Shown one piece after another: positions 5,379 through 31,920 of a DNA stretch of 32,000 nt (within the stretch, counting starts at the first letter, position 1; every line of letters starts with the position of its first letter). The DNA comes from Candidatus Saccharimonadota bacterium (GTDB lineage: Bacteria > Patescibacteriota > Gracilibacteria > BD1-5 > UBA6164), in contig CP042461.1 in NCBI GenBank assembly GCA_004563595.2, positions 720,001 through 752,000 on the forward strand, read 5' to 3'. A model generated the notes under the pieces. It saw only the letters and a program-made list of their open reading frames with translations. It was not told where the DNA came from and ran no database searches. A program made the position numbers and the translations under genes.

Positions 5379-5531
5379 TATTAACTCACCCTTAATCATA
5401 TATCTAACCAACTCCACTAACTCAACATTTACTAAGTCTCATATTTTCACTCAATCTTCATCTACTTTAAAAACACCTCTTTAAAGTATCTCGTTCTTTC
5501 AAAAACAATATAAGTCCTTGAATCATCAACC
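5376..5531 (-). pseudogene. duplicated, frameshifted 3' fragment of miaB (TRAM-domain end)
   Basis: The minus strand reads ...KVDEDGVKIGDLVNVELVELVRYMIKGELI*, against ...[30 protein letters not shown] at the real miaB end (6240-6396). A 1-nt deletion (tttttt to ttttt) breaks the frame upstream. There is no start codon and no upstream gene body. Confidence 0.75.
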
Positions 5532-5550
5532 AGGTAGAATAATTTTTAAC

Positions 5551-5578
5551 TTGACTTTATAGAAAAATATCCTATATT
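5551..5578 (+). promoter_or_regulatory. sigma70-like promoter candidate for the 177-aa membrane protein gene
   Basis: TTGACT (5551-5556), a 16-nt spacer, then TATATT (5573-5578). Confidence 0.4.
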
Positions 5579-5636
5579 TTTAGTACATTTTTTTAGCATT
5601 AGTCTATTATGAAATAAACAGATTAGGAGAAAAACA

Positions 5637-6170
5637 ATGGTACTTGAAATAAAGCAAGAAACAGCTCTCAAAAATACGAGAAGTATTAATTTTCGTGAAT
5701 GGTTAGACCTATTTAAAAAATTGAAGAAACAAGTAACTTCATTAATAGTACACTGCCTACCCATAATTCTTACTTCATTTATTTATATATTTGATATTTT
5801 TTCAAATATAGGAACTGAATGTATGATAATGACACCTGATACATTTTCTACTGCAAGAGCGATGATATTTACAATACTAATACTATGGGTATTTCGTTCA
5901 AGATTCTTTGCAAGTGATTTAAATCCATCACGAAAGAAAGTATTAACAGGTATTATTAGTTCTATTCTTAATTTCGCATTTATAGTCTGCTGTATGACGA
6001 TAGGGTTAATAGATTATCATCTAGATTCTGGCTTAACTCGCCAAGATTATTATAGTATAATTTTTCTGATTTCTATTGCTAGTATGGCAAATATTGGATT
6101 TGTATTAAATACAAATAGAGAACTCTTTCTCGTAAATAAAAATGTTAATAAAAATAGGGTAGTAAACTGA
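5637..6170 (+). CDS. hypothetical 4-TM membrane protein (177 aa if TGA stops; 203 aa to TAA 6246-6248 if TGA=Gly); TGA-free body
   Basis: ATG lies 6 nt after SD aggaga (5625-5630). The basic N-terminus is followed by four hydrophobic spans. All 5 Gly are GGN. The first in-frame TGA (6168-6170) sits exactly where a standard-code stop would be, just before the terminator hairpin. Confidence 0.7.
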   Translation: MVLEIKQETALKNTRSINFREWLDLFKKLKKQVTSLIVHCLPIILTSFIYIFDIFSNIGTECMIMTPDTFSTARAMIFTILILWVFRSRFFASDLNPSRKKVLTGIISSILNFAFIVCCMTIGLIDYHLDSGLTRQDYYSIIFLISIASMANIGFVLNTNRELFLVNKNVNKNRVVN

Positions 6171-6206
6171 AATAATAATGACTCAAAATTAAAAGTCATT
6201 CGTACC

Positions 6207-6236
6207 AAAAAAAGCGTATCATTGATACGCTTTTTT
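6207..6236. terminator. bidirectional rho-independent terminator (gene at 5637 and miaB)
   Basis: Stem aaagcgtatc (6211-6220) pairs with gatacgcttt (6224-6233), flanked by an A-run on one side and a T-run on the other. Confidence 0.7.
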
Positions 6237-6239
6237 AAT

Positions 6240-6396
6240 TTATACTAATTCACCCTTGATAACATATCTATCTAACTCTACTAATTTAACATTTACTAAA
6301 TCTCATACTTTTACGCTTCCCTCTTCTGCTTTAAAAAAGACCTCTTTAAAATTTCTTGTCCTTCAGAAATAATATCAATCCTTAAATCAATTCACA
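6240..6396 (-). repeat. copy B of the roughly 155-bp miaB 3'-end direct repeat (copy A is 5376-5531)
   Basis: By-eye alignment gives about 75-80% identity with one indel. Both copies start right after a terminator hairpin. Confidence 0.75.
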
Positions 6397-14567: not shown

Positions 14568-16319
14568 TTAATTTAATATCAAATGGTCAACGCTTGCAAG
14601 ATCGTAAAATTTTCATTCTTTTTCCATTAAGTCATCATAACTTCATGACTCTACTATTTCTCATTTCTCAAGGACGAATATTCTATCTACGTGTTTTATA
14701 GTACTGAGTCTATGAGCTATGATTATAGAAGTTCTTCACTTCATGAGTGTATCAAGAGCCTTTTGTATAAGTTTTTCAGTTTTATTATCAAGTGCTGAGG
14801 TCGCTTCATCAAGGATGAGTATTTTTGGATTTTGGAGGAATAATCTTGCAATAGAGAGCCTTTGTTTTTCTCATCAACTCAGTTTTAATCCCCTTTCTCA
14901 AATTACAGTATCAAGTCAATTCTCTAAATCAAAAACAAAGTTTGCATTTGCCTTGTTAAGTGCACTTTCTAATTCTTTCTTTGTAGATTTAGGGTTTGCA
15001 AAGAGTAAGTTTTCTCTAATACTGAGATTGAATAAACTATTGTCTTGAGAGACAACTCAGATATGCGACCTAAGAGATTTTTTATTAATCTCTTTAATAT
15101 TATGATTATCAATCATAATCTCTCAATCATTTATATTCCAAAATCTTAATAATAAGTTAATTATTGTTGATTTTCATGCGCCAGTACTTCAAACAAATCC
15201 TATTTTTTCTCCTGGAGTAATTTTAAAGTTTATTTTTTTTAAAACTATTTTTGATTCTAGATATCAAAAGCTTACATTATTAAATGTAATATATCACTCT
15301 ATAAATTTAATTTTTTTTGACTTTTTCGTATCCTCATCCAGAGATACATTATCAAATTCACTATGAAGTTTCTCAATTGAAGTAAGATATTCAGATACAT
15401 CTCTTAATCTCATAAATATATTTCACAAGGGAAAATAAATCCATCAAATATATGAAAAAAACAAAAATAACATGGCTAATGTAAGTGTTCAATGAATCAA
15501 AAAGTACACTCAAAATCATAATACTAACATTCTTGATATCATGACTAAAGTTCAAGTATATATATATGAGAAACTCCAAAGTTTCATTAAATGGGTCTGT
15601 TTTCAATATAAATAATCAAGTTTTGATGAGATAGATTTTAAAAAATTTTTTTCTAAAACTAAATTTTTTGTAAGTGCAAAGTTACTAAGAATATTTCATA
15701 TATCTCAAAATATAGACTCCCATTTATTAGTTAATTTTCTCTGATCTGGGATTAATCTTTTGAAAAATAATAAATTAATTATTACCATAAATGGTAGCAT
15801 AGATAAAACTAAAACAGCCATCCTAACATCAAAATACATAAGCAGAATAATAATAAGAATTATTCATGTTAAGTCTTTTATAATTTCTCAAAAGAATAGG
15901 TACAATAATCTTTCTTGTCACATGCATCATCTATCAAATATTTTATATAAACTTCATTGTTTTTTTCATAAGTATTCTCAATAAGGCATATTTATAATTA
16001 CATTCGCATATTTTTTATTCAAATCAACATAGTTTTTCATAATCGATTTTGACATCAGAGAATATCTATAAAAATATTGAATAATTATACTAAATAATAT
16101 AAATAGAGCCCAGAATCATATATACCAAATTAATTCTTCAAAATCAAATGTTCATGCTGAGTAAAATATTTCAACTTTTTTAATAATTTGAATAAATATT
16201 AAAGGTTCCAATACAGTAATAAAAGATACGAATACTCAAAAAAACAGTATGAAAATAAATTTTCTCATTCATACTGTTTTGATAAAACTTTCAAATATTT
16301 TTTTTATTGTCTGTTGCAT
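14568..16319 (-). CDS. ABC exporter, fused permease/ATPase (MsbA-like, 583 aa)
   Basis: The N-terminal half is a transmembrane domain. The ABC signature and Walker B read [27 protein letters not shown]. The H-loop region is [11 protein letters not shown]. Confidence 0.88.
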
Positions 16320-16327
16320 TATTTTAT

Positions 16328-17347
16328 TTAAACAACTATTTTATCTTCTGGATCAATAACTACTTTTTTATATACTGAAAGTTTTTTATTTTTATTCACC
16401 ATATATAATATTGGTGAAGCTATGAAAATAGATGAATATGTTCATACAATCGTTCAGAATATCATAACCAGCACAAATCCTTTAATAGTCTCTGGACCAA
16501 AAAAGAAAATAGTAATCAATACAAATGCAAGAGTAAGACTCGTATATATACTCCTCGTCACAGTTTCAGTGATAGAAAGATCTACAATCTCTTCTAAGTT
16601 TTTTGCATCTTTTCACGTTTTCCCTCAGAATTGTTTTAAGTTTCATCTAATTCTATCAAATACTACAATAGTATCATTAATAGAGTATCAAAGTATAGTA
16701 AGAAGAGCTGTAACAAAAAATGTATCTATTTTAAATTCTGGGAAGAATGAAGATATACCTACATATAATCAGGTTGATATTAATACGTCATGGAAAAGTG
16801 TAATAATAGTAATAACTGCAAAAGACCAGATACTTATACCTCATATAACTCATGAAAAAGCATATGTTACATAGATTGCAATTGCTACAATGGCAATAGC
16901 AAGAGTGAGGATTGCTGTATCTTTTATATAATCTCAAAAACTTTTTCAAATATTTACATATTTTGCTTCAATGGCAGAATCATCTTGTGCTTTAATTATG
17001 GCAAGAGTTTTTGCTCTGAAATCTTCCTTTAAAGTATCAAGGGTTTTATCATCAATATCATTATAAAATCATACTACAGCTGAGAGAGTATTTTCTCATG
17101 TAATTTTATATGCTGAAGTGTTATTAATCACTTGTTTCCCATCGTTTAAAAAACTTTCAGACTCGGTTTTTAAATCTTTTTGAATAGCTGTGATATCGAT
17201 ATTTTTTGAATAGTTATAATCCATTTGGATTCATCAAGTCATATCAATTCATAGATTTAATTTTCAAGCGAAAATAAGAAAAATAGATATAATGAGAAAA
17301 ACAGCTGAAATAGCAACGTAGATCTTACTATTTTTTACAATTTGCAT
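16328..17347 (-). CDS. secF: protein-export membrane protein SecF (339 aa)
   Basis: Motifs seen: GIDMTGG, TILGYSINDTIVVFDRIRGN and TETVTRSIYTSLT. No adjacent secD. Confidence 0.85.
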
Positions 17348-17479
17348 TAGAGATACATTAAAATATAAAAGTTGCAATCATTTTAAACAAAAACTCAAAA
17401 AAGCAAGAAATAACTTGTAAAAAAACAAAAATCTGATAGAGTTTGAGCGAAAAAAATTAAAAATAAAACAAAAAATAAC

Positions 17480-18244
17480 ATGTTGAAAAATATATTCAAA
17501 AAAATAATACATATTTTAAATATCATACTTATTTGACTGAGTTTTTCACTCGCTCTTATTGCTCTGTTTAAGAAGGAATGGATTGAACAATTTATTGAAT
17601 GGATGAAAGTTCTGATTGATTGACTTTGAATGTGGAATTATTTAATAGCATGACTGAGTAGTCTCATTGAATCTTTTCCTGTCTTAGGAATCGTAGTACC
17701 CTGACAAAATATTCTTCTGATTGTCTGATGATTTTTTGGAAATATCAGTACTACTAACCTCATATATGTTGTTATTATCGCTTCTATCTGAGCAATAATA
17801 TGAAACTATATTTGATATCTCCTTTGAAAATACTTTTGAGATTCGTTCTTTAAAAAATACTGACTCTGGTTTGGTATCTGACTTACAGAAGTAAAGTACT
17901 TAAAAAAATGAATTGATAAATGGGGACCTCTGTGAATCATTCTTTGAAAGTTTCACCCAATGACAAGATCATTTCTTCCATTTATAGCATGAAGCATGTG
18001 AATGCATTCTGCTAAATTTATGCTCTATAATATAATTTGATCAATTATCCGGGCAACGGTTATAATAGTTTTATGAGTTATATTTGTAGCGTATTATAAA
18101 ATAATCCTAGAACACTTAGGAACTGTAATGATCTGAGTTATGGCACTTGTTTGATTCTATATATATAAGTTTAAAAGAGTTGAGTTTAAAAAATATATGG
18201 ATGAAAAAAATAAAGAATTTGAAGAAATATCAAAAAAGAAGTAA
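17480..18244 (+). CDS. DedA/SNARE-associated family membrane protein (254 aa)
   Basis: Motifs seen: ESFPVLGIVVPGQ, GNYIGYLLGKYFG and HPMTRSFLPFIAG. By hand count, 23 of 28 Gly codons are TGA. Confidence 0.85.
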
Positions 18245-18267
18245 TAGATATTACTTCTTTTTTTTTG
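18236..18267 (+). terminator. rho-independent terminator after the DedA gene
   Basis: Stem aagaagtaata pairs with tattacttctt, followed by a 9-nt T-run. Confidence 0.65.
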
Positions 18268-18313
18268 TAAACGTGAGGTCAAAATTAATATATTTTGTCT
18301 TAAGTCAGGTAAA

Positions 18314-18512
18314 ACCTCTCACTTGAATTCTCTCCCCTTAACAGGGGAAAGAGGCTACATGTTCATATTATATTGAAAAAATATTGAGTTCTCACTTCGA
18401 AGTTCTTTATTTTAAGATAAATATACCCAATTAAATAAAACTAAGTTTAAATATAGTTTTATAAGATGCAGCCCTTTTCTCCTGATAAGGAGAGAAGATT
18501 CAGATGAGAGGT
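18314..18512. repeat. MITE-like element: 47-bp imperfect terminal inverted repeats around a roughly 105-bp AT-rich core
   Basis: The left arm (18314-18360) is acctctcacttgaattctctccccttaacaggggaaagaggctacat. The reverse complement of the right arm (18466-18512) is acctctcatctgaatcttctctccttatcaggagaaaagggctgcat. That is 37 of 47 matches. Each arm also folds into its own G+C-rich hairpin. Confidence 0.6.
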
Positions 18513-18753
18513 GAAAATACAGGCATAGCGAAGGATTGTAGAGTAATATATTGTAATATTCATTATAAATAGTTTTATACTTGATCTATTATCAAGTTTT
18601 TAACAAAGAAAAAAAATATTTTTTGTTCTTAATAAGTTTATTTATATCATCGTTTCGATGAAAAATAGATAATATTGTATAGTAATATAATGATTATATG
18701 AAACAAAGGAGGGAATTTGTGGGCCATTATTATGTAACCTATTTTTTTGTTGT

Positions 18754-18828
18754 ATGAAGACTTATCTAAAGAAAACCATATCATTGTTTTTAATTATTGC
18801 ATTTTTAAGTAGTAACCTTGTTTTTGCT
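18754..18828 (+). other. Sec signal peptide of the 1883-aa protein
   Basis: MKTYLKKTISLFLIIAFLSSNLVFA followed by ENDKK: basic n-region, hydrophobic core, and an A-x-A-like cleavage context. Confidence 0.7.
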
Positions 18829-21800
18829 GAAAATGATAAGAAAATAAGTAAAAAATTAACTGAAAAAGTTAAAACTATCAAAGAAAAGCAGAAGAAAAAA
18901 GAGAAGAAATTTGCTAAAGTAGTTTGAAAGGCAGATACAATTATCAAAAACTATCAGGAAAAAGTCAAAAAAAAATGAACTGGATATAATAAAAGAAATA
19001 AAGAAAAAATAGAGGCTGTTGTTAAAAAAGCAAAGAAAACAAAGCTAAAATTGATTGAAAGAGCAAATGAACTTTTAAAAGATAATCTTGAAAAAGATGT
19101 TGATGAAGAATTAGACTTATGAGTGATCACTTCAAAGGAAGCATGAGATCTCAAGCAAGAAATCCAGCCAAACTACCTCTTTGAGCTGCAAGAATTAGTA
19201 GGGACTGATATAGTTCCTGTAGATACGAATTTTTCAAACCAATGGGGGTTACAAAACATAGTAAATTGAGAAGTATGAAATAAACTCCTCTATACTTGAG
19301 AAAAAGTAACCGTTGCTGTAATAGATACGTGAGTAGATTTCTCTGTAGAAGATTTAAACTGAAAGCAGTGGAAAAGTGAAACTTGTGTAGATAGTGAATG
19401 AATAGCAATTCCAGGTTGATGTATGGAATGATGATATGATTTTGTAGATGATGATACCAATCCCTACCCAAGTGATAACTATACTCACGGAACCAATGTA
19501 TCATGAATCATCTGAGCAAATACAAATAATAGTGTTTGAATATCAAGTATCGCAAATGATAACGTTGAGATCATGAGTTTGAGAGCCTGTTGTGGTCAAT
19601 GAAACTTCTTCTGAGCGAATGATATTAGTAAAGCAATAAAATTTGCGGTGAATAATGGTGCTGATATTATTAATGCCAGCTTTGGTGGGCCTACGGATGC
19701 TCCTGAAATCAAAGAAGCTATAGAATATGCAAATAATGCATGAGTAACCATTGTAGTTGCTGCATGAAACTATGCTTCGAATAATGATACAAATCCAATG
19801 TATCCAGCAAATTATGCTAATGTGCTGAGTGTAGGATCTATAGATAGTACTGAAAATAGTTCATATTTTTCAAACTACTGAAATTCTGTAGATATTGCAG
19901 CTCCAGGCTCTACTGTATATACAGTAGATTTCAATAATACATATAGAACACTGGATGGGACAAGTTTTTCAACTCCTTTTGTTACCAGTGTTGTTGCGAG
20001 ATATAAATCTCAAGATGCCAGCTTATGAGTTGTTGATTTAAAAAATAAATTATTTATTGCTTCTATTCAAAATCCAGCTTTGAGTTGAAAAGTAAATAAT
20101 GGAATGCAGTTAAAGCTTGATGCGAGTAGTATTGAGAAGGCTTTGGTTGAGAGTGGAGAGGTTGTTGTGGAGGAAGAGTTTGATATACCCCTCCCTAACC
20201 CTCCCCTTCCAGGAGAGGGGACTTGAGGTGATGTTAGTTGAATAGAAATTGATGAGAGATATGTGAAGTTTATGAAACAAATTTCAAAGTTAAGAAAGTG
20301 AAAGATTTCTCAAGAAAGTACAAAGGATACGATAAGTCTTCAAGAAGTAAGTGAACTGGAAGCAGAGCTTCAGACTTTTATAACTTCTGAAAGAGTCAGG
20401 CTTCTTTCTATTAATGGAGTTGATGAACTGAAAATATCTCGTTATATATCATTACTCAACGATCAACTTGATCTCGTAAAAAACTATAATACTACTATTA
20501 ATAATGAATCCAACCAAACAACAGTACAAAGTAGCTCAGTCCAAGATTTTCAAGCATTTTCAATAGAAACCCTCTCAAATCTAGGAATAGAACAAAAAGA
20601 AGCTTCAAAAGATATTCAAACTCTTTCTGATATGAGTTCTTTTAGTTTCTGAGATAGCGTGGAGAATATAGGAAGGCTTTCAGATTATAAAATGATTTTA
20701 GAAAGTAGAGTTCCAACCTCATCAGAAGAAATATCATTTTTAGCTACAGAGTCTTTTGTCCCTGTTCAATTAGAAGACTTACAAGAGAATGAAGAAGTTA
20801 TCATTTCTTCAGACATACAAGACCTAGCAACAGAGTTACATAATAATCCTGTTTCTATATTTAATTATGTTAAAAATAATATAGAGTATGAACCATACTC
20901 AGGAGTAAAGAAAACATCTACTCAGTGTCTGAGAGATAGATCATGTAATGATTATGATAGCTCTTCCCTTCTTATATCACTCCTCAGAGCTTCTGGAATC
21001 CCAGCAAGATATAAACAAAGTCATATTCTCGTATGAAAAGACAATGTAAATAAACTCCTCTGAGTATCTGATATTAAATCAGCATATTACGCATTATCTC
21101 AAGGAAAAATTCCTGTATATATAATGAGCAATGGGAGTCCTATTGATAGCAATTTTGAAACTGCTGATTTCTCAGGAGTCACTCAACTCGTTGTAAAATG
21201 GACCTTTGCAGAAATGTATTATGACTATGATCATAGGTGAGCAAATCATAGTAATGATGTATATTTTTCTGATATTACTACTCAGGCTGAATTAGATACA
21301 AGGCTTGTTGATTACTCTAATAGAGAATGGTTAAAGATAGATCCAACTTTCAAGTTTACTCTCGTTTGAAATGAGGTTTCTGATTCTCATGTAATAGAAG
21401 ACTCTACCATTGATACTCACACATTCTTTGAATCATATTTACAAACCTGAGATACTGATTGAGCATTAGAAGCTTATAAAAAGAAACTTATAGAAACTTC
21501 TCCTGCAACTGATGATACAGAATTAGCTTTATACAATTTCAATAAAAATAATCAAAATACTCACTTTGAAATGCTTCCAGTTACTTTTCCTTATTCTCGT
21601 ATTACATGAACAACAAGCAGTGGAGTAATAATAGAAGATAGTGCTTTTTCTACTATCTCAGATACTGAAAAACAAAAAATAGAAATAGAATTGAAAGACT
21701 CAACTACTTGAAGCGTAGTTCTAAAAAAATCATATAAAGTTACTGAAATAAATAATATTCCTCTCGATCTTCATTATCAATGAGCAACTCAAGCTGATAT

Positions 21801-24405
21801 AGATATTATAGAGAGTTATGGAAGTCTTCATTTAACTCCGAGTAATCTTGTAAATATACAACCAGCGTTTGTATGAGCGGAGTTTAACACTGTTGAATGA
21901 GAAACAATCACAGATAATATTCCTGTGAAAATTTGAGATCAATTGATTCTTACTTTTAGATATTTTGTAAATGGAGTAGAAACAAATGTAAGTTCAAAAT
22001 TTTCGACTGCATGAAATAGAGAAGGTATCTACTTAAACTTCTCAAAAATTGTTTCTGATACTATGGATACTGATTCAAAAGTACTCTTAGCATGAAACTG
22101 GGCTATTGCGAAAAAATATCTTGAAAGACTTGAAATAGCAAGTAATGAACTAGAGCAAATCTTTAATAGAGAAAATACTCTCAACTATTCAAGAGCTGTA
22201 GTTACACAAAATAGAATACTCAATGAAATAAATGGAGATCCTACTACTTTTGAATTTAAATGACTTACTCTTGATGCTCATAGTTATATTGGTGATTACT
22301 ATAGATGAACTGATTTAACGAATTCATATAAAAAGTATTCAAGTGAATTTTGAAAAATCTATGGACTCTATGCTTCAGAGCAAGAAGGACAAATCTTTGA
22401 TGATATTACAGGGTTAACTGGTATCTCAACAGTAAAAGGTCTTCAATATGCATATGCAAATCCTGCAGACTATACCATTCATAAAATTGATAGTTCAAAT
22501 AAATCAGTTATTGATAGTCTTATACTTTCTGAGAATACTAAGACTCTTATGGGAGCTTATGTAGATGAGTGAAGAACTATTACAACACCAAATAAGTTGG
22601 TGAAAAATCAAACTTGGGAAGGTTTGTTTTATACTGCAATTGATAGTGATGGAGAATGAGTGTATGCGATTGGTGAAGGGGTTGCGCAGAATGGTGGGTT
22701 TAGTGTTGATGAAATGCTTGATATGTGAGAAGGAGTAAATGGAGCTCTTATTGCTTGTATAGAAAATTGAGCAACAGAATTACTCGCAAATACCTGTAGT
22801 GCATTTAAAAATTATGAAACAGTTAACTTTAGTTATAGATGAATAGTAAAAAGTAATGATGAACAATCTGTAAAAGACTTATTTTCGTGGGAAGAAAGTA
22901 ATGGACAATTGATAACAACGAGTTATTTAAATTATGGATACCATAATCTTCTATTTACTAAAAATTGAGTTATTTTTGATAACTCATGAAAGGAAATAAA
23001 AAACTGAGATTATAAATATTTTATCTCATATTCTGATATCTCTACAAAACTCAAAAATCATTTTTCTGACCTAGAAAAAATGCACCTTTCTTTAGATGTA
23101 TGAACTTTTTTCTCAGATATAACATCAAGTGAGTATATATATTATTCTCCAAATCCTAATGCTGGAAATGTCTATTCTGTAAAGTGAGCTTTTTTAAAAA
23201 AGCTTAAGAAAACGTATCGTAAATGAGAGGTAAATACAGTTCAAGAATTACTTTGATTCCCAACTTGAGATGAATTATGATGAACAACAATAGAAAGCAA
23301 TGTTGGTTACAAGTATAAATCTCAACCATTTATAAATGGAAATTTATACAGATATGAAAATTTTTATAATATATTTCCTAATACCGTTTATACATACTGA
23401 GCCCTAGAAGAAACCCTTACTAATAATTGATCTGTGACAGCTCTATGACTCCCCGCAGATGATCCAGATTTCTCTGGTAAAAATGATATTATTCAAGAGT
23501 ATGATAGTTGAGTGTTAATAAAGTTAAATCAAGATTGAGAAACAAACTTAGTGTCAGATAAAAGATACGCTTGTTATTTAGCTAATAATTCTGAAATTAC
23601 AAGTAAAACAAAATTAAGACTTGCATTAATTCACTGATTTTTTTCAGAAATTCAAGACGTAATATGATTAGTCCCCGAATTGATTTTTGGAATATCAAAA
23701 TGAATTATAAGATCTGATTTAGAAATTAGAAAAACAGAATTTTATCTTGATGACATAAAAGATTTATTAATTGAAGTAAGTAAGATAAGGCTTAGTTCAA
23801 TAAAAAACTTTTTTCTAGCTACCTGAAATGGTATTTGAAGTGCTTTATATGATGAAATGAATAGTAGTGATACTACTTGTCCTCTCAGAGAAAGCTATGT
23901 GATTTGAAAAATATGGTGAACATTTGTAACGGCATGATTATGATGAGTATGAACTGCAACAAAAATTGAAAAGATTAACGAAGCAAAAAGATTAGCGAAA
24001 TTAATTAATGCATGAAAATTTGATGATATTGTAAAAGCCAAAAAATTTGCAGATGGTAAATTTAATATAAATTGATTTTATGAATTGAATTATCATTTCT
24101 GAAAACATGGTGAAAATTTTTGATTAAACGTAGATAATTTAAATTTAAAATACAAATATCAAGAAATAGCAGAAAAATTTATAATTAAAGGGGGCTGAAA
24201 TAATGTACTTGAATTTTTACAAAAATCATGAAACGCACATGATTATATTAGAATTAATTATAGTGATGAAATAATTTGAATCTACCGTTTAGAAACAAAA
24301 GAAATTACAACTTTCTTTGAGTTTGACAATATAGATAATATGAATTCTAAAATAAAACAAATACTAAATAATATAAATACAAGTAAAATTTCTTGAAACT
24401 ATTAA
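18754..24405 (+). CDS. giant secreted multidomain protein (1883 aa): signal peptide, Lys-rich coiled coil, subtilase S8, transglutaminase-like domain, long unknown region, distinct C-terminal module (polymorphic-toxin-like)
   Basis: A single table-25 frame was verified at 19324, 20659, 21901, 22981 and 24001 (all in the same phase) and ends at TAA 24403-24405. See the domain sub-features below. Confidence 0.85.
19240..20130 (+). other. peptidase S8 (subtilase) domain with an intact Asp/His/Ser triad
   Basis: Asp is in VAVIDTGVD (codon 19324-19326, with the following Gly encoded by TGA at 19330-19332). His is in HGTNVSGIIGA (19486-19488). The oxyanion Asn is in AAGN (its Gly is TGA at 19765-19767). 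Ser is in GTSFSTPFVTSVVA (19963-19965). Confidence 0.9.
20188..20232 (+). repeat. G+C-rich hairpin-like patch inside the coding sequence, related to the arms of the 18314-18512 element
   Basis: The sequence cccctccctaaccctccccttccaggagaggggacttgaggtg is about two-thirds G+C, in a gene of roughly 30% G+C. It shares ctcccctt, aggagag and gaggtga, in the same order, with the inverted-repeat arms. It encodes PLPNPPLPGEGTGGD in a linker. Confidence 0.35.
20850..21360 (+). other. transglutaminase-like (papain-fold) core domain
   Basis: RSCNDYDSSSLLISLLRASGIPARY carries the Cys at 20944-20946. It is followed by WTFAEMYY and EWLKIDPTF (Asp present). The position usually occupied by the catalytic His aligns by eye with Trp. 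Confidence 0.7.
24040..24402 (+). other. C-terminal module of about 120 aa, candidate toxin domain (family not recognised)
   Basis: FNINGFYELNYHFGKHGENFG carries an H-x2-K-H motif at 24094-24108. It follows a Gly-rich hydrophobic segment, IWGTFVTAGLGGVGTATKIEK. It sits directly upstream of two small paralogous genes. Confidence 0.4.
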
Positions 24406-24422
24406 TTTTTAACTTTACTAAT

Positions 24423-24824
24423 ATGGAAAATAGAACTTACGTTTGCCCAAATTGTTGATTTAATGATTTAGCATGAACATATAGTGTATGTAGGGTATGT
24501 ATGTGGGAGGAAGATTTAGATTGAAAAATATATCCCCTTATAGCAACTTGACCTAATAATAGCTTGTATGATGAACAACAAAAAATTATAAAAAAATATC
24601 CATTATCGATCAAAAAAACTATTTTTTTTGATAAGTATGAGAATAAAAATTTTATGATAATGCGATCAAGTAGTTGGAAGCCAATAGATATAGGAGATAT
24701 AAAATATAAAGATAAGCCTTTCATTGAAAAATGGTATTATGAAGATTATATAAAATCTATTTATTGAGATGATTACAATCATTTATTTGAAGAAGCTCAA
24801 GAATATAACCCTACTGATTATTAA
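24423..24824 (+). CDS. CPCC-type cysteine-rich zinc-ribbon protein (133 aa), candidate immunity protein 1
   Basis: MENRTYVCPNCGFNDLAGTYSVCRVCMWEEDLDG...GPNNSLYDEQQ matches the CxxC...CxxCxWE(D/E)D signature of the Cysteine-rich CPCC domain. The C-terminal part reads KDKPFIEKWYYEDY...EAQEYNPTDY. Confidence 0.8.
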
Positions 24825-24965
24825 AGTAAAAAAATGATTGAAGAATTTTGAGAAATATGAACGTTTTATTAATTTGAATCATTAGAAAAGCAAATTAGTA
24901 AAATTGAGTGAATAGTTAGTAGATGAATAATTATTTCTTGAAAAAAATAAATTTTAACTTTATAT

Positions 24966-25343
24966 ATGAAAACAGAATATTTTATGTGTATATGTTGTTG
25001 ATTTTATACTTTAAAAAACCCTTTTGACTCCGAGGGTATTTGTAAAGTTTGTAAGTGGCAAGATTCAGCTAATGATAAATTTTATCCTTATTCAACATGA
25101 TGAGCAAACATTGATAATTTAGTGAATTCACAAGAAAAATTAGGATTTCTAAATGGTATGAAAGAATTTGATTGATATATTAGAAACCCTAATTGGAAAT
25201 TACTTACTGGAATCAAAATTAAAGATAAACCTTATGTTGAAAAATGGTTTTATAAAGATGTACTAGAAATTTATAACTCTGAATATTACGAAAAAATCTA
25301 TAAAGAAGCCCAAAAATATAACCCTACTGATTATGAAATATAA
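24966..25343 (+). CDS. CPCC-type cysteine-rich zinc-ribbon protein (125 aa), candidate immunity protein 2 (paralog)
   Basis: The N-terminus is MKTEYFMCICCGFYTLKNPFDSEGICKVCKWQDS...GGANIDNLVNSQE. The shared C-terminal part reads KDKPYVEKWFYKDV...EAQKYNPTDYEI. Confidence 0.8.
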
Positions 25344-25663
25344 AGATTTCTTTAAAAGTTTTCTAAAAATGATTATCTGAACAATGGTATGATATATGAT
25401 TTGAATGTTAGTTATTATATGATTATTTTTATTATATGTATATATAGCACTTCCTACAAAAATCTGATACTAAAATATTGATTTAAAACTTTATAATAAT
25501 TACAAATACATGATAAATTTTAATAAATACATTGATTTACATAAGAGTTTAGCCAATGAAAAATTCATATCAGAAGCAAAAAGGATTTCTAAAAAATTAA
25601 ATAGTATTTGAATTATTGAAATATAAAAAAAATAAAAACCCTTAAAACTATAAAAACTTCTAA

Positions 25664-28600
25664 ATGAAATTTAAAAAACTACTATCCCTACTAACCATCT
25701 CAACACTCCTCATATCTACAACGAACTTACAACACGTAAACGCAAACGTAGATATAGGTTTTGATGTGAGTAATGCAAATGAAATAAATATCCCTGCATT
25801 TCCTGAGGATATTGATACAGCTCCTACTGATTGGTCGGAGACAGATTGGGATTCAGAGACTATCCTCCCTGCAGATAAATTTGCTTATGAAAAGAAACTT
25901 GAAGAGCTTCTAAATGCAGGTGATTTTGAAGCTGTAAAAAATCTGGAGATGAAAAAGACTTCTCTGTCTGATGATGCCTCACTTGAAATCTATGATGTAC
26001 CAAAAGAGGTGCAAGAAGTAGTAAAAGATCATTATGAAAATAGTGGTTGAATTTCTGTACAAGGAGTCTGAAAACCCCTTACATTAAAAGAAAAATTACA
26101 AAAACTCCCTTCTCCTTACAAAGGAAAGGAGCTTGATGTGAGGTCTGAAGATCTTACAATAGAAAAAGAACTCCCTGAAATTTCAAAAAATAAATTGAAA
26201 ACAGTGAAGAAAAAATCACTCCAAGCAATCTCTCTTGGGAAAGCGAACATTTGAAATCTACAATTAGAGGAGCAAGTTGAAAAAGATAGAAGTATTTCTC
26301 TTCAAGGAGTTAATACTCCACTTATAGAATACTATGACGGAATCAGTAATAATAATGTTGATTATGCATTATACTCCCTTACCTCTCTTCAATCTGAAAA
26401 TGGTCTGATATGAAACTCTAGCAGAAATACCTATGAGTTTTTACAACTTTTAAAATCATTTAAGAAAACAGATAACTCAGCATATTACAAAGCAAAGAAT
26501 TACTTTCTCAATCTCGTACCAAGAAATAACCTAGAACTCGTATACAAAATACAAGTTATGAAAGATGAATGACAAGATTATTCTTCTCTTGTAACAAGCC
26601 TCAAAAACTCGATGAACTCAGATAAAGGATACCCTCTTTTAGAAGGATATGATTCTGATATTTATACTAGTATTGAAACTCTCAATCTCCTCACTGATCT
26701 CAATGACTCAGCATACATTGATCCTATGAATTATATACTTTGAAATATTTGATCTACTGGAGAAATTAAATATTACCTTGATTGATGAAAAAATAGTTCT
26801 CTCCTTTCATACAAAGTATTACAAACACTGGAAAAACTTACATTTGCTGATAAAGATACTTATATCACAAAAATACGTGATAACTTAGCTATAAATAGTG
26901 AGAGAAGTACACTAGAGTCATCTCTATACGGTCTTTTACTTGAAAAAGATGGAAATGTACTCGATGAAGTTCAATTCATGAAAAATGACTTAAAAAAACT
27001 TCAATCTTATGACTGAAGTTTTACTGATGATCTGACTACTATATACACTTCCCTCTTTCTTGCTGAAGCTGATTTAGTCATTGAATCCGTTACTCCAGTT
27101 TGAACACTCAAACATAAAGATGCTGCAAAACTTACGGTAACAATTAAAAATAATGGATATAAGAAATCTCTCCCTGTATGAATCCATACATATACAAATA
27201 AATATTATCATGCATGAAAAGCAACAGCTATTAGTGATAGTATAGATTCAAATAGTACTGTCATATTCGAACTTGATTTCAGTTCAACCCCTAGATTTAA
27301 GTGAGATGTAGAGTTTGATTTTTTCCTTGATAATCAAGGAGATATAAATTATGAAGATAATTGGTTCAACTCAGCATTTAATTTTGTAAATACTTCTGAT
27401 AATTCCCCAGTACTTCCGATGAATTATTCAGCTTTCTCACACGAAAGTAGTGCATGACTTGGAATTGCGGCTATTTGGAATGATACTGGTGATATAGATC
27501 TACAAGAATATGTAGTACTTGTAAGAAATAAAGGAGAGTCTGATTGGAAAGAAATTGTATTGAATAAAACTCTCTACCCTGAAGGTGCCTTTATCTCATG
27601 ATTTAATGAATGAGATAAAGTGGAGGTAACAATGTGAGTAAGATTAGCTGATAGCACACTCTCATATTTTTCAAATTTTTCTGAGTTTACTATTACTCCG
27701 ACAGCCAATAAGCTCACTTCTAATGTAAATTGAAAACTATACTCAAATAAACTCTGAGTATATAATGAACTCTTAAAGTGAAATTGATACAGTACAACTT
27801 CTGAACCAGGTTGAGATTTTGATATCTCAGTTCCTGCTTGAAAAACTATTATATCTATTGATAAAGGCTCAGGATACGAGAGCTTTGAAAATAGTATTAC
27901 TGCTGATGGAGTAACTGACATAACTTGATATGAATATCATACAAGACTCAAAGTTGATGCAGAAAAACCAGTAATGTCAGATTTAAAATTTAATGATAAT
28001 TTTGCTATAAAAAATAGGAAAACAAAAAATATTATTATATCATGAACTGATAATATAGGCATTAGAGAGTTTCATTTATATTATTATGATCCAGAATATG
28101 CTTCTTGGATATTTGAAAATAGTATGACTCCTGATTATGGACAATCCACTTATACTTGGAGTATTCCAGAAACTCTTCTCTGAACTTGATATAAACTCAA
28201 AACTGTTGCTATAGATTACAAATGAAATGAGTCTCTCCCACTTGAATATGGTCCATTTGAGATAATAGATTGAACAGCTCCAGAATGAACCATTGAAATC
28301 ACATGATTAGAGGCATGAAGCAAATGGAAACTTTGAGATACAAAAGAGTTTACTTGGAACGTAGATCTTGTTTATGATCTACAGCAAATAGTAAATGTAA
28401 AACTCCATTATGAAAATGCGTTCACATATATTGCGAATTCTATTGATGTAATAAAAACATCTGAATCATATACTATCCCTATTGATTCAAAGTATTTGGC
28501 AAATGTCTGATATATAAGCTTACTGGCTTGTGATGTACAAAATAACTGTAGTACACTTGAGTCACCAAGATTTGAAATATATGAAGAAGAGTTCCAGTCA

Positions 28601-29896
28601 AAATGACCATGGAATCAACCAAGTGATATATGAATAAGTCTCTCAAACTGAAATTACAATAGATATATAGAAAAAGTATTTTTCTGAGAAAATGAAACTA
28701 TAGAAGTTATATTTTCTGAATTTGATAAATATACTTGAAGAGACTATAGACTCGTATATAGAAAATATGAAAACTGAGTTTGGTGAGATGAACAAGTAGT
28801 AAAACAATATAATAATCCAAGTAGTTGACCTTCTCATTCATTTAATTCAATAAAGAGTGTGAAACTAGGAAATAAAATTTGAATTACTTACAGTGATTTT
28901 TACAAAGACCTCACTGCTTCATGATTTGGATATGATGAGTCTGAAATATATGCGATAACTATTGAGAATAGTATTCTTGGAAATCTGACACAAATAAGTA
29001 ATGATACAACTCTTTCATATAATCCTGAATTAGAATTTGATGACAATGGTTTATATGTAATATGGAAAGAATGATATAGTATTACTACAGAAACATGAAA
29101 TAGGAAATTAAAATTACGAAAGGCAGATATAAACTGAATATGGAATAATGAAATTATACTGAGTGAAGATTCAGTTTCATACTATGATTTAGAATATCAA
29201 AATAATAGATTATTTATTTCATATGTATTTGAAGATAATCTGAAACTAAAAGAATATAATTACTCTACAAGCACTTGGAATAATGAAATTCTCATAGGAG
29301 CAGAAACCGGAATAAAAGAAAACAAAATATTTCACAGAAATGGTACAGAAATATATGATCTATTTCTGAAAAAAATTACACCTAACACAACAGGTTTAGA
29401 GAAATATCATCTCATTCACAAGAAAGTAGATCTCACTTGATGAACTGCAAATATATTATTAGAGAAAAATATAACAGCAGCTTCAGATTTAGAAAGCCTT
29501 CAAAAATATACGATTGAAAATAAAGATGGTACTACATATCACCTTGTTTATACAAAACTTTCTCTTACTGAAAACGGGGATAAAATTAGTATAAATTATT
29601 CAGAATATGGAGATAATTTAAATACAAACTATTTAGTTCTCTCTCCTGCTACAAATATAATTTCAGGATCTAATTACTTGTTTACTAGCAAATTAAATGA
29701 TGTGTTAAAACTATGATATGTTTCAACTATCTGATGAGTAACTAAATTACAATATGTCACATGAGATTTTACTCCAAAATCATCTGAATTTAGTTTTCCT
29801 GAATTTGACATTGACGTAACAATGAATCTCAATGAATTTAGAGTTACATTCATATTCCTCTGATACAGATTTAGTTTCTGGCTAAATTTACTTTAA
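25664..29896 (+). CDS. large secreted surface protein (1410 aa): prenyltransferase-like alpha/alpha repeats, CARDB-like and Ig-like beta domains
   Basis: Signal peptide is MKFKKLLSLLTISTLLISTTNLQHVNA. The table-25 frame was verified at 27599, 28622 and 29879 and ends at TAA 29894-29896. It extends track ORF 25664-26050. Confidence 0.85.
26330..27060 (+). other. prenyltransferase/terpene-cyclase-like alpha-alpha toroid repeats
   Basis: Recurrent Q/S-x2-(D/N)G-aromatic repeats: LQSENGLIGNS, NSDKGYPLLEG, GSTGEIKYYLDGG and LQSYDGSFTDD. Confidence 0.4.
27068..27330 (+). other. CARDB-like domain
   Basis: ADLVIESVTPVGTLKHKDAAKLTVTIKNNGYKKSLPVGIHTY... matches the usual DLvv-x-vtvtvkNqG pattern. Confidence 0.5.
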
Positions 29897-29934
29897 TATA
29901 TATAATATTTATTACTTTTATAATTTCATATACA

Positions 29935-31920
29935 ATGAAAAAAATACTTTCAATACTTTTGATTTTCTGATTATTACTTCAAAGTTTATTTGTTACAGGT
30001 ACTGCTTATGCAGTAGAAGAAACAACTGTAGATATTGATGGATTATATATGCCTCAATTTGAAGATCCTCTTTTTAAAGAAAATTTTCTAAACAATATAA
30101 TCAAAAATAACTGATTTAATTTACAAGCAGGAGATAACTGAATACCAATTACTACACATGGAGCAAACTATCCTACATACTCTCCTGATGGGAACTATAT
30201 TGTTTATTCTAATAAAGATGGTTCACACTATATATATAAAAAAAATAGTTCTGATAATTCAACTGGTATCCAGTTAGGAACAAAAATAAGTCGAGCTCTT
30301 GTTTATACTCCTGATGGTAATAATCTTATATATACAAATTATAATGATTGATATGCTATATATAAGAAAAGTGCTAATGATCTTGCTAACTGAAACTGAA
30401 TTACAAATTATTATTGATATTACCCTCAAGTTTCACCTGATTGAAATGATTTATATTTTGTAATAAAATGATCTAATACTTATAAAGTCTATAAAAAAGC
30501 AATAAATGCACCAATAAATGACTGAGATCTAATAATTGATAAAGAAGTATACTGGATATCACTTTCTCCAGATTGAAATAATTTAATATATAAAGACTGA
30601 GCTAATAATCTTTTATACAATAGAGATTTAGTAAATAACACAACTAAACTAATTACAAGTGTTGGTTGAGCAACATTCACATATTCTCCAGATTGAAAAT
30701 ACCTAATTTATACAAATGAAAGTGATTGATATAAACTTTACAAAAAAGATCCAAACACCTTGTCTAATGGGACGGCAATAAATAGTGTATCTTCATTCTA
30801 CCCTGCATTTTCTCCTGATTGAAAATACTTAGTTTATACGAATATCAGTGATGGATATAAAATGTATAAAATTGAGATGCCTTTTGTCACTGAACTATGA
30901 TCAATAACATCTACTCAAACAGTTATTAATTCTAATAATGAAAATTCAGTAGATTTTTCAATTAGCTGAATTAAGGATACAGATAGTGGAAATACAATCA
31001 CTTATAGCTATTCTTTTAATAATTCCACTTTTACAAATCTACCTGTTACAAATACAAGTCCAATATCAAATGGGACTTATAATTTTAATTTAGATTTATC
31101 AAGTAGACCATCTTGAGATATTACGGTATATATAAGAGCAAATGATGGAAGCGAAAATTCTAATGTAGTAAGTATAACTCTTGTAAAAAATAATACCCCT
31201 ATTCTTGATTCATTAACTTCAACTCAAACAGATATAAACTTAGATAATGTTTTAAGTCTAGATTTAAAAGTGAATTGAATCAATGATCCTGATACATCAA
31301 ACACTCTAAGCTATAGTTACTCTTTTGATAATATCGATTTTACTGATTTAACGGATACTTGAATCTCACCAATTTCAGATGGAAATTATAATTTTGATTT
31401 AAATCTCTCATGACAAGATGATGGATTAGTCAACATATATGTAAAAACAAATGATTGATATGAAAATTCAAACACGGTAAGTTTAGCTTTAAATAAAAGT
31501 GCTACATTATTAGTCCCAACTGCACCTTCAGCTGTGAATACAAATAATATATCATTAAACTGAGCAACATATAGTTGGACTGATAATTCAGAAGGTGACA
31601 ATAGAGAGTATAAACATGTCATTAAAGATCAAGATAATAATATTATAGTTGATGAAATTTGAGCAAATGCTACAAATATTATAGAATCATGATTAACTCC
31701 AAATACGTCATATCAAAGAAAAATATGTGCAGTAAATGATGCATGAGAAGCTTGTAGTATACTAATAAATTTTACTACAAAAATAGAAGTAACATGATGA
31801 AAAACAACTACCTTTGACTTTGCATGAATTGTCATCAATATTGTTGAAACACTTGAGATGTTTAAAGTAGAATTTAATATCTGAGAATTTAAAATTAATT
31901 TTAGTATTGAAAAGATATAA
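29935..31920 (+). CDS. secreted TolB-like beta-propeller protein with tandem Ig-like repeats and an FN3-like domain (661 aa)
   Basis: Signal peptide is MKKILSILLIFGLLLQSLFVTGTAYA. There are six PD40-type blades (YSPDGNYIVY, YTPDGNNLIY, VSPDGNDLYF, LSPDGNNLIY, YSPDGKYLIY, FSPDGKYLVY). The frame ends at TAA 31918-31920. Confidence 0.85.
30150..30880 (+). other. six PD40 (WD40-like) beta-propeller repeats
   Basis: The x-SPDG-x-x-L-(I/V)-Y ... Y-K-(I/L/V)-Y-K-K periodicity repeats six times. Several of the SPDG Gly codons are TGA. Confidence 0.8.
30901..31518 (+). repeat. intragenic tandem duplication: two 309-nt (103-aa) Ig-like units
   Basis: Unit 1 (30901-31209) reads SITSTQTVINS...YSYSFNNSTFTNL...ISNGTYNFNLDLS...VYIRANDGSENSN. 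Unit 2 (31210-31518) reads SLTSTQTDINL...YSYSFDNIDFTDL...ISDGNYNFDLNLS...IYVKTNDGYENSN. Confidence 0.8.
31516..31780 (+). other. fibronectin type III-like domain
   Basis: PTAPSAVNTNNISLNGATYSWTDNSEGDNREYKHVIKD...GLTPNTSYQRKICAVNDAGEA fits the FN3 pattern of a conserved W, a T-x-Y and an A-x-N-x-x-G. Confidence 0.55.

Follow-up and report, generated by a model that had tools for sequence, protein, structure and literature searches.

Candidate Phyla Radiation (CPR) bacteria, or Patescibacteria, are believed to lead a life attached to other cells, and little is known about the molecules with which they attack or compete. Giant surface proteins have been described in predators of this group that use genetic code 25 (PMC8080830). 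The question raised here is what is encoded by five consecutive genes (A to E) in a 13.6-kb block, positions 18314-31920 of a stretch of 32,000 nt from contig CP042461.1 (720,001-752,000, forward strand). The whole stretch is called the window. A previous reading of the sequence only had joined these genes into one module of adhesin, propeller and protease-toxin. In our analysis, genes A, B and C probably constitute a Sec-dependent polymorphic toxin-immunity locus, with gene D as its conserved partner. The association of A with D was retained from the earlier proposal and that with E was not. What had been missed is an exchangeable toxin tip and immunity cassette between two conserved genes.

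Gene A and its C-terminal tips

When translation table 11 was used, the block was fragmented into short open reading frames (ORFs). When stops were limited to TAA and TAG, five plus-strand ORFs were obtained, filling positions 18754-31920, with coordinates identical to those of the genes described before. TGA codons fell on the invariant glycine of the Walker A motifs of DnaA, an ABC transporter and Adk. They were also found at glycines of the ABC signature LSGG(E), of GltX ('PTGYLHIG') and of the S8 peptidase motifs 'DTG' and 'AAGN'. Because TGA occupies these invariant positions, it is read as glycine in the source bacterium (genetic code 25), as had been proposed. The three large genes (A, D and E) make up 37% of the window, the share already reported. 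Signal peptides were read from the sequence with a Kyte-Doolittle (KD) hydropathy scan. The N-termini of A, D and E each contain a K-rich n-region, a hydrophobic core and an AxA-like site (VFA/E, VNA/N and AYA/V, respectively), in agreement with the Sec signals assigned to them previously. The features of the block are listed below in window coordinates (+, plus strand; TGase, transglutaminase).

18754..24405 (+): gene A, 1883 residues, putative Sec-exported polymorphic toxin (ORF call, Pfam, family comparison)
19297..20052 (+): S8 subtilase domain of A, residues 182-433 (Pfam Peptidase_S8 PF00082, E-value 3e-45)
20764..22722 (+): TGase-like module and beta-rich domains of A, residues 671-1323 (Pfam, BLASTP)
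23878..23958 (+): pre-toxin stretch 'CPLRESYVIGKIWG...' of A, residues 1709-1735 (motif in six family members)
23986..24405 (+): variable C-terminal domain 'NYHFGKHGENFG...' of A, residues ~1745-1883, predicted toxin domain, orphan
23800..25660 (+): putative replaceable cassette with pre-toxin stretch, tip, B, remnant, C and spacer (DNA identity with L001)
24423..24824 (+): gene B, 133 residues from ATG, alternative TTG start at 24393; CPCC zinc-ribbon protein (Pfam PF14206)
24873..24950 (+): probable decayed toxin 3' end 'FESLEKQISKIEGIVSRGIIISGKK*' (junction DNA alignment, spacer translation)
24966..25343 (+): gene C, 125 residues, second CPCC protein
25664..29896 (+): gene D, 1410 residues, predicted secreted giant protein, partner of the A family
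29935..31920 (+): gene E, 661 residues, PD40 propeller, two Ig-like repeats, FN3

Protein A consists, in this order, of a signal peptide, a Lys-rich coiled coil, an S8 domain, a TGase-like module, a beta-rich core, the pre-toxin stretch and the variable tip. An N-terminal export signal on such a large multidomain protein is a mark of the polymorphic toxin class. The catalytic residues D191, H245 and S403 and the oxyanion N339 of the S8 peptidase were all found by motif inspection, and the enzyme looks active. Its nearest S8 modules are within RHS/Tc-type toxins (P0006, P0009 and P0068). Most members of the A family have no S8 domain, so it is an accessory module. Subtilisin and inactive transglutaminase are listed as features of Sec-type polymorphic toxins; a processing role has been proposed for the former and anchoring of the toxin through peptide binding suggested for the latter (Zhang et al., 2012; PMC3482391). 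By analogy, the S8 domain of A is plausibly a processing protease.

Transglut_core was recognised at residues 697-753 of A (Pfam, E-value 7e-8), and homology to the N-terminal module of the RHS-repeat toxin P0127 extends over residues 671-1323 (BLASTP, E-value 3e-30). When A was aligned without gaps to the TGase-like protease 3ISR, an Asp of A fell on the canonical Cys position. At the presumed catalytic His position, judged from the canonical HxWxE motif, a Trp is invariant in the three family members aligned. The module appears catalytically dead, not the enzyme previously implied; as this is based on alignment, the active site may instead have shifted. A model of the A core was built with AlphaFold2 (AF2) from nine sequences. 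It was confident for about the first 620 residues alone, and only the TGase/papain-like core was recognised in it by Foldseek. RHS_repeat and TEN_YD-shell gave no Pfam match in A, and no shell-like fold was matched. Neither a TPS domain, FHA repeats, a VENN motif nor an Omp85-type CdiB was found by Pfam in A or D. By these comparisons, the core of ~900 residues matches no known filament or shell.

The two full-length relatives of A seen first were P0002 and P0003, which come from a further code-25 genome and from a genome with the standard code, respectively. Members from L003, L004/L012, L006 and L008 and P0122-P0126 were added later, one of them named Candidatus Uhrbacteria. A scan of species-representative genomes, a collection without the source genome, gave one locus. 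Up to the pre-toxin stretch, identity to A was 58% for the L001 protein, 34% for P0003 and 30% for L003; beyond it, the sequences are unrelated. All members align up to the 'C..R..Y..G.I.G' stretch (residues 1709-1735 of A), which is the last segment in common. Among the 11 distinct members, at least six classes of C-terminal tail can be told apart, none of them related to another. One class is of the PD-(D/E)xK type (restriction endonuclease-like, REase-like) and was found at four loci (mutual E-values 1e-12 to 4e-40). The L001 tail matches Pfam Tox-REase-7 (E-value 1e-3) and fits the GxxxE / D / ExK motifs listed for that family by Zhang et al. (2012; PMC3482391). A second class, 'SGHY', is clear at two loci (E-value 2e-36) and weak at a third, L006 (E-value 1.6e-4). 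The four others are singletons, the tail of the window among them. The family has the conserved body, the unrelated C-termini and the fixed boundary of polymorphic toxins. By Pfam comparison, several of its tips are new and belong to no Pfam family. The description of A as a protease-toxin in the sequence-only reading gains from these variable tips, the S8 domain and the toxin-type modules.

The tip of the window is short and carries a His/Lys-rich motif. No match was obtained in a word-indexed search, among PDB sequences (phmmer), in Pfam at E-values up to 10 or in NCBIfam. An exhaustive phmmer search over 1.84 billion representatives returned the query itself and one spurious repeat (P0121). 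A tip of a recognised toxin family, as seen in other polymorphic toxins, was not found in these searches with the window's tail. Its single-sequence AF2 model had a predicted local distance difference test score (pLDDT) of 46, too low for the model to be of use. At low confidence, we would guess at a nuclease.

Two candidate relatives of the tip were discarded. P0121 is a low-complexity repeat that matched via artificial Trp residues. P0122 has a 'YH[FY]xKH' motif in common with the tip, but the BLAST match covers six residues (E-value 0.34) and the next gene is not a CPCC gene. The public protein collection stores P0001 (protein A of the window) and P0002 with every TGA read as Trp. For P0001, 83 TGA codons are concerned, i.e. 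83 Gly-to-Trp changes. Public protein collections hold these proteins with 4% wrong residues of this kind (Trp for Gly), which masks homology.

The small genes and the cassette

Gene B occupies the slot in which small genes co-vary with tail type. Downstream of REase-like tails, one family of proteins of 136-161 residues is encoded (E-values as low as 1e-13), duplicated in L008, and downstream of the two clear 'SGHY' tails a second small-protein family (E-value 2e-15). Two independent pairs of tail class and small family therefore recur across loci, as is the case for toxins and their immunity proteins. Behind the other tails lie genes for membrane proteins, DUF7957 proteins or a protein of 244 residues, and behind the unique tail of the window those for the two CPCC proteins. 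B and C scored 32.2 and 37.2 bits, respectively, with PF14206 (Cys_rich_CPCC; cutoff 24.5). Both contain the CxxC...CxxC ribbon of this family, and their C-terminal half (~70 residues) lies outside the Pfam model. They are 34% identical to each other (E-value 1e-22). Neither a signal peptide nor a transmembrane segment was detected in B or C, which fits immunity against a toxin acting in the cytoplasm.

The limits of the cassette were determined from the DNA identity between the window and L001. Identity was 65-74% at 22.5-22.8 kb, dropped to about 33% (background) at ~23.8-25.6 kb and was back to 80-84% from the start of D (from 25.75 kb). Because this ~1.8-kb segment (23.8-25.6 kb) is bounded by conserved DNA on both sides, it is, as judged from the alignment, a replaceable cassette. 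In an alignment of the two junctions, the ~45 nt ahead of the start codons of B and C were alike. Translation of the spacer between B and C gives 'FESLEKQISKIEGIVSRGIIISGKK*', a sequence similar to the end of A. This orphan remnant is short and gives modest evidence. B is the probable cognate immunity protein of the tip. C is probably an orphan or duplicated immunity gene, because it is preceded by a decayed toxin end and a B-like junction. Both genes had been called immunity-like from the sequence, and their position in a co-varying slot and within the cassette bounds adds weight to that view. Modest independent support for CPCC proteins as immunity proteins comes from a Priestia megaterium plasmid, where a CPCC gene lies between a Barstar gene (E-value 2e-20) and a CdiI-type gene (E-value 5e-29), in a series of small genes that are all on one strand.

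The 320 nt that separate C from D contain a small hydrophobic ORF, 'MIIGTMVGYMIGMLVIIGLFLLYVYIALPTKIGY' (25369-25473). At other loci, an RDD or Yip1 membrane protein is encoded at the corresponding position just before D.

Gene D, gene E and the flanks of the block

The N-terminus of D contains a conserved 'DWxxxDWD...LPxD' segment and its body is CARDB/Ig-like. CARDB scored 21.7 bits in D (gathering score 22.7) and is clear in a D homologue (31 bits). The L001 orthologue of D is 75% identical and is located after a small gene; the start of an orthologue of E follows. D homologues adjoin A-family genes in L003, L004/L012, L006, L008, L009, L010 and L011. A search seeded with D gave five metagenome loci. 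In four of them, an A-family gene lies directly upstream in the same orientation; in the fifth, the sequence before D is too short for a call. When the body of A was used as a seed, a D-family gene was found downstream in every locus with enough downstream sequence (the P0122 contig ends too soon to be scored). Together, the order A, cassette, D was adjacent and co-oriented at nine of the ten informative distinct loci. These loci are from genomes of 28-48% GC with the standard code or code 25, and the identity of the linked A and D proteins goes down to about 23-30%. The functional link claimed by the sequence-only reading stands for A and D, which were not scattered in relatives. This synteny makes D a conserved partner of A-family genes.

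D-family proteins have a common body of ~1250 residues and differing C-termini, and range in size from 1400 to more than 4200 residues. The C-terminal tips identified were the following.

L003: three CBM_4_9 domains
L006: three Laminin_G_3 domains
L010: FG-GAP/UnbV_ASPIC
L009: HYDIN-type Ig repeats

Variable tips of lectin type are as expected of a target-binding component. The alpha/alpha toroid repeats previously seen in D were not confirmed: the best match of residues ~219-285 among PDB sequences was a prenyltransferase beta subunit, which was not significant (E-value 0.12). The thioester motif CxEQ was found neither in D nor in four homologues. No D-like neighbour was found near the RHS toxins that have a related TGase module, so the partnership would be specific to the RHS-less A family.

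In L010, a gene of 254 residues within the cassette (5529-6293) copies the N-terminal ~110 residues of the D family, fused to an unrelated C-terminus. The copy contains the signal peptide and the 'DWxxxDW' segment and is 35% identical to residues 2-108 of D. It has the appearance of a trace left by recombination near the 5' end of D. In L006, the D homologue is directly followed by a gene of 116 residues (16742-17092), whose product looks like another immunity-type small protein.

Gene E gave a Pfam match to PD40 (E-value 2e-17) and contains six [ST]PDG blades and two tandem repeats of 105 residues that are 51% identical. The six blades and two repeats assigned to it before were thus seen again; the FN3 domain was marginal (23.8 bits, gathering score 25). 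E was seen only in the window and in the closest relative, L001, where the start of the orthologue is present. No homologues of E were found near the distant D genes and loci. The genes after D in L004 and L006 also encode secreted repeat proteins, none of them related to E. The claim that the propeller protein E forms one module with A and D was abandoned, and E is best seen, from its distribution, as a lineage-specific surface neighbour outside the conserved module.

The last ~40 residues of D and E (29774-29896 and 31798-31920) form a similar beta-strand-like tail, 'F.F....I.V...L.EF+V.F...G..F..F', in the same register five residues from the C-terminus. Alignment of the two tails scored 40, against a shuffle mean of 22 (standard deviation 4.4), and 4 of 2000 shuffles reached 40. 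The tail could be a lineage-specific sorting or anchoring signal; its significance is modest.

No plus-strand terminator-like sites were seen between the genes of the block, including the interval 24405-31920 for which this check had been suggested. The promoter scan gave 84 matches for 89 expected and is uninformative in such AT-rich DNA.

The rest of the window encodes housekeeping functions (dnaA, adk, miaB-like, dcd, gltX, clpP, ABC transporter, secF and DedA/VTT), and the DedA gene is the last one upstream of the block. Its VTT domain was found, as was the inverted repeat of the element resembling a miniature inverted-repeat transposable element (MITE) that had been noted between DedA and A. 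The MITE-like element (18314-18512) is made of two imperfect inverted arms of 47 nt, 37/47 matching and ~105 nt apart. Each arm has its own small hairpin, and the element is present as a single copy in the window. The cumulative GC skew has its minimum near ~17 kb, where gene orientation turns from mostly minus to plus; dnaA is 15 kb away, at 680-2098. No cluster of DnaA boxes was found near the strand switch at ~18 kb (window positions 16000-18800).

Interpretation and known systems

According to the explanation that we favour, A would be exported via its signal peptide. Its body (optional S8, dead TGase-like module and beta-rich core) would carry an exchangeable C-terminal toxin domain of ~140 residues. 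This domain would be freed by proteolysis, plausibly by the S8 domain of A itself. B, as a cytoplasmic cognate immunity protein, would shield the producer and its siblings, and C would be a second immunity gene, orphan or duplicated, behind a decayed toxin end. D, a secreted surface protein, may bind the target cell (a host cell or a competitor) and present or deliver A. As the cassette is flanked by the conserved A body and the 5' end of D, these two could act as recombination arms, and the cassette could be swapped by homologous recombination.

Several observations weigh against this explanation. The tip of the window has no homologue or recognisable catalytic family in the searches made, so that its toxicity is deduced from position. 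The query of the exhaustive phmmer search carried eight Gly-to-Trp substitutions, which lowered its sensitivity. The Tox-REase-7 match of the relatives (E-value 1e-3) is under the Pfam gathering score. The small protein encoded after the weakly 'SGHY'-like tail of L006 is not related to those at the two clear 'SGHY' loci. CPCC is not an established immunity family, and no paper linking it to immunity was found. Outside the TGase region, the structure modelled for the A core is of poor quality (pLDDT 53.6). The link seen between A and D is one of gene adjacency, and in L002 the small gene is followed by an S-layer homology (SLH) protein and not by D.

Alternatively, the block might encode ordinary envelope proteins of a CPR bacterium. 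A would then be a surface maturation protease or cross-linker, D and E an S-layer or fibre, B and C unrelated small zinc-ribbon proteins, and the tail of A, as a non-essential part, a product of fast drift. Such a view is in keeping with the intact S8 triad of A, the adhesion and Ig-like modules of D and E, the SLH protein after the A-like gene of L002, the absence of a toxin signature in the window's tail and the giant surface proteins common in code-25 CPR predators (PMC8080830). It is nevertheless unlikely. Drift does not yield discrete unrelated tail classes that recur in distant genomes with matching small genes, nor an abrupt loss of DNA identity that recovers to 80-84% at D. Moreover, the Cys and His positions of the TGase appear replaced, S8 is missing in most members, and A has modules in common with RHS toxins. 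It is somewhat less improbable, although still doubtful, that A-C are a toxin-immunity locus beside which D and E are mere neighbours, held in place by a recombination arm or a shared promoter. The stray N-terminal ~110 residues of D in the L010 cassette are as expected of a recombination arm. At some loci, RDD, Yip1 or extra small genes lie between the immunity genes and D. L002 has no D, and RHS toxins with the TGase module have no D-like neighbour. However, adjacency and co-orientation of A and D are kept at ~23-30% identity and in two genetic codes, far beyond the usual neutral synteny of bacteria, and D tips vary among lectin-type modules, as expected of a target-binding component.

D could also be a shield that protects the producer from A or from the toxins of neighbours, of the alpha-2-macroglobulin type or otherwise trapping proteases or toxins. 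The protein is large, contains multiple Ig-like domains, directly follows the immunity genes and has a faint likeness to an alpha/alpha-toroid protein (residues ~219-285, E-value 0.12). Since this match is not significant, the CxEQ thioester is missing from D and four homologues, and the carbohydrate-binding tips (CBM_4_9, Laminin_G_3, FG-GAP) point to outward ligands and not to protease trapping, we consider a shield highly improbable. Very little credit was likewise given to a horizontally acquired mobile genomic island of 13.6 kb, the 'island' of the sequence-only reading. The MITE-like inverted repeat at the left edge would suit an island, as would upstream neighbours that vary between loci: DedA in the window, and uvrD-like and ndk genes in L003. 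However, no tRNA was found in the window, the genome is ~28% GC with no compositional break between the block and its flanks, and no integrase or transposase was found among the window ORFs scanned, the right border being beyond the window. In another lineage, the A-D module is embedded directly after the ribosomal protein genes of an rpoA-L17-L13-S9 cluster.

With the toxin-immunity locus and its partner D preferred over these explanations, a more specific proposal can be put forward tentatively, as one possibility among others. The A and D families might be the two components of a contact-killing apparatus of CPR/Patescibacteria that depends on Sec and has not been described before. In it, D would serve as a lectin-tipped surface fibre for target recognition, on which A docks to deliver its swappable tip, perhaps with the dead TGase module of A bound to the 'DWxxxDWD' segment of D. 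Recombination in the A body and in the 5' end of D would swap the cassette, and the tip of the window would be a new fold neutralised by CPCC. If so, the orphan CPCC Pfam family would gain its first function, immunity. The locus is a concrete candidate weapon, with an exchangeable tip, candidate antidotes (B and C) and a giant partner, D, possibly setting target choice. The A family also flags several candidate toxin tips outside Pfam. No mention of polymorphic toxins in code-25/CPR lineages was found in the literature searched on these lineages.

The known systems close to this locus include the Sec-dependent polymorphic toxins with subtilisin and inactive TGase modules (PMC3482391), among them RHS toxins with an N-terminal TGase such as P0127. 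They and the present locus have in common a signal peptide, an inactive TGase-like module near the N-terminus, an optional S8 domain, an exchangeable C-terminal toxin, an immunity gene directly downstream and orphan remnants. With the RHS/YD-repeat toxins proper, only the N-terminal TGase module is in common. In contrast to RHS-TGase toxins, the A family has no RHS/YD repeats, most of its tips belong to no Pfam family, its members include one labelled Ca. Uhrbacteria, which is a CPR lineage, and two from code-25 genomes, and a giant downstream partner is present that is absent from RHS-TGase loci.

The MafA-MafB-MafI system of Neisseria comprises a Sec-exported polymorphic toxin, an accessory gene in the operon, immunity genes and arrays of orphan tips and immunity genes. 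MafA, a small lipoprotein, has its gene upstream of that of the toxin. The present locus resembles Maf loci in its Sec-exported toxin, conserved accessory gene, immunity genes and orphan cassettes. It differs in the partner, which has 1400 to more than 4200 residues, is multidomain, is encoded downstream of the cassette and has no sequence similarity to that of Maf. WapA-WapI of Bacillus subtilis is a Sec-dependent surface polymorphic toxin of a single-membrane bacterium, with its immunity gene directly downstream. WapA is built with RHS and wall-binding repeats, and a conserved giant partner is absent. Sec export, surface association and a downstream immunity gene are common to both systems, whereas the A family lacks RHS repeats and has the giant partner D.

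Contact-dependent inhibition (CDI) by CdiB-CdiA-CdiI also involves a large exported toxin, a pre-toxin boundary motif, a variable C-terminus, immunity, orphans and a second conserved protein. CPR cells are generally thought to have no outer membrane. Here, TPS, FHA, VENN and Omp85-type CdiB were undetected by Pfam in A and D, and the position and nature of the partner differ from those of CDI. Judged by these comparisons, the locus is not an RHS, CDI or Tc system, and, apart from a recognised tip family, it shows the genomic features by which polymorphic toxin systems are defined. Its new features are a body without RHS repeats, a giant partner downstream of the cassette, unclassified tips and CPCC proteins in the immunity slot.

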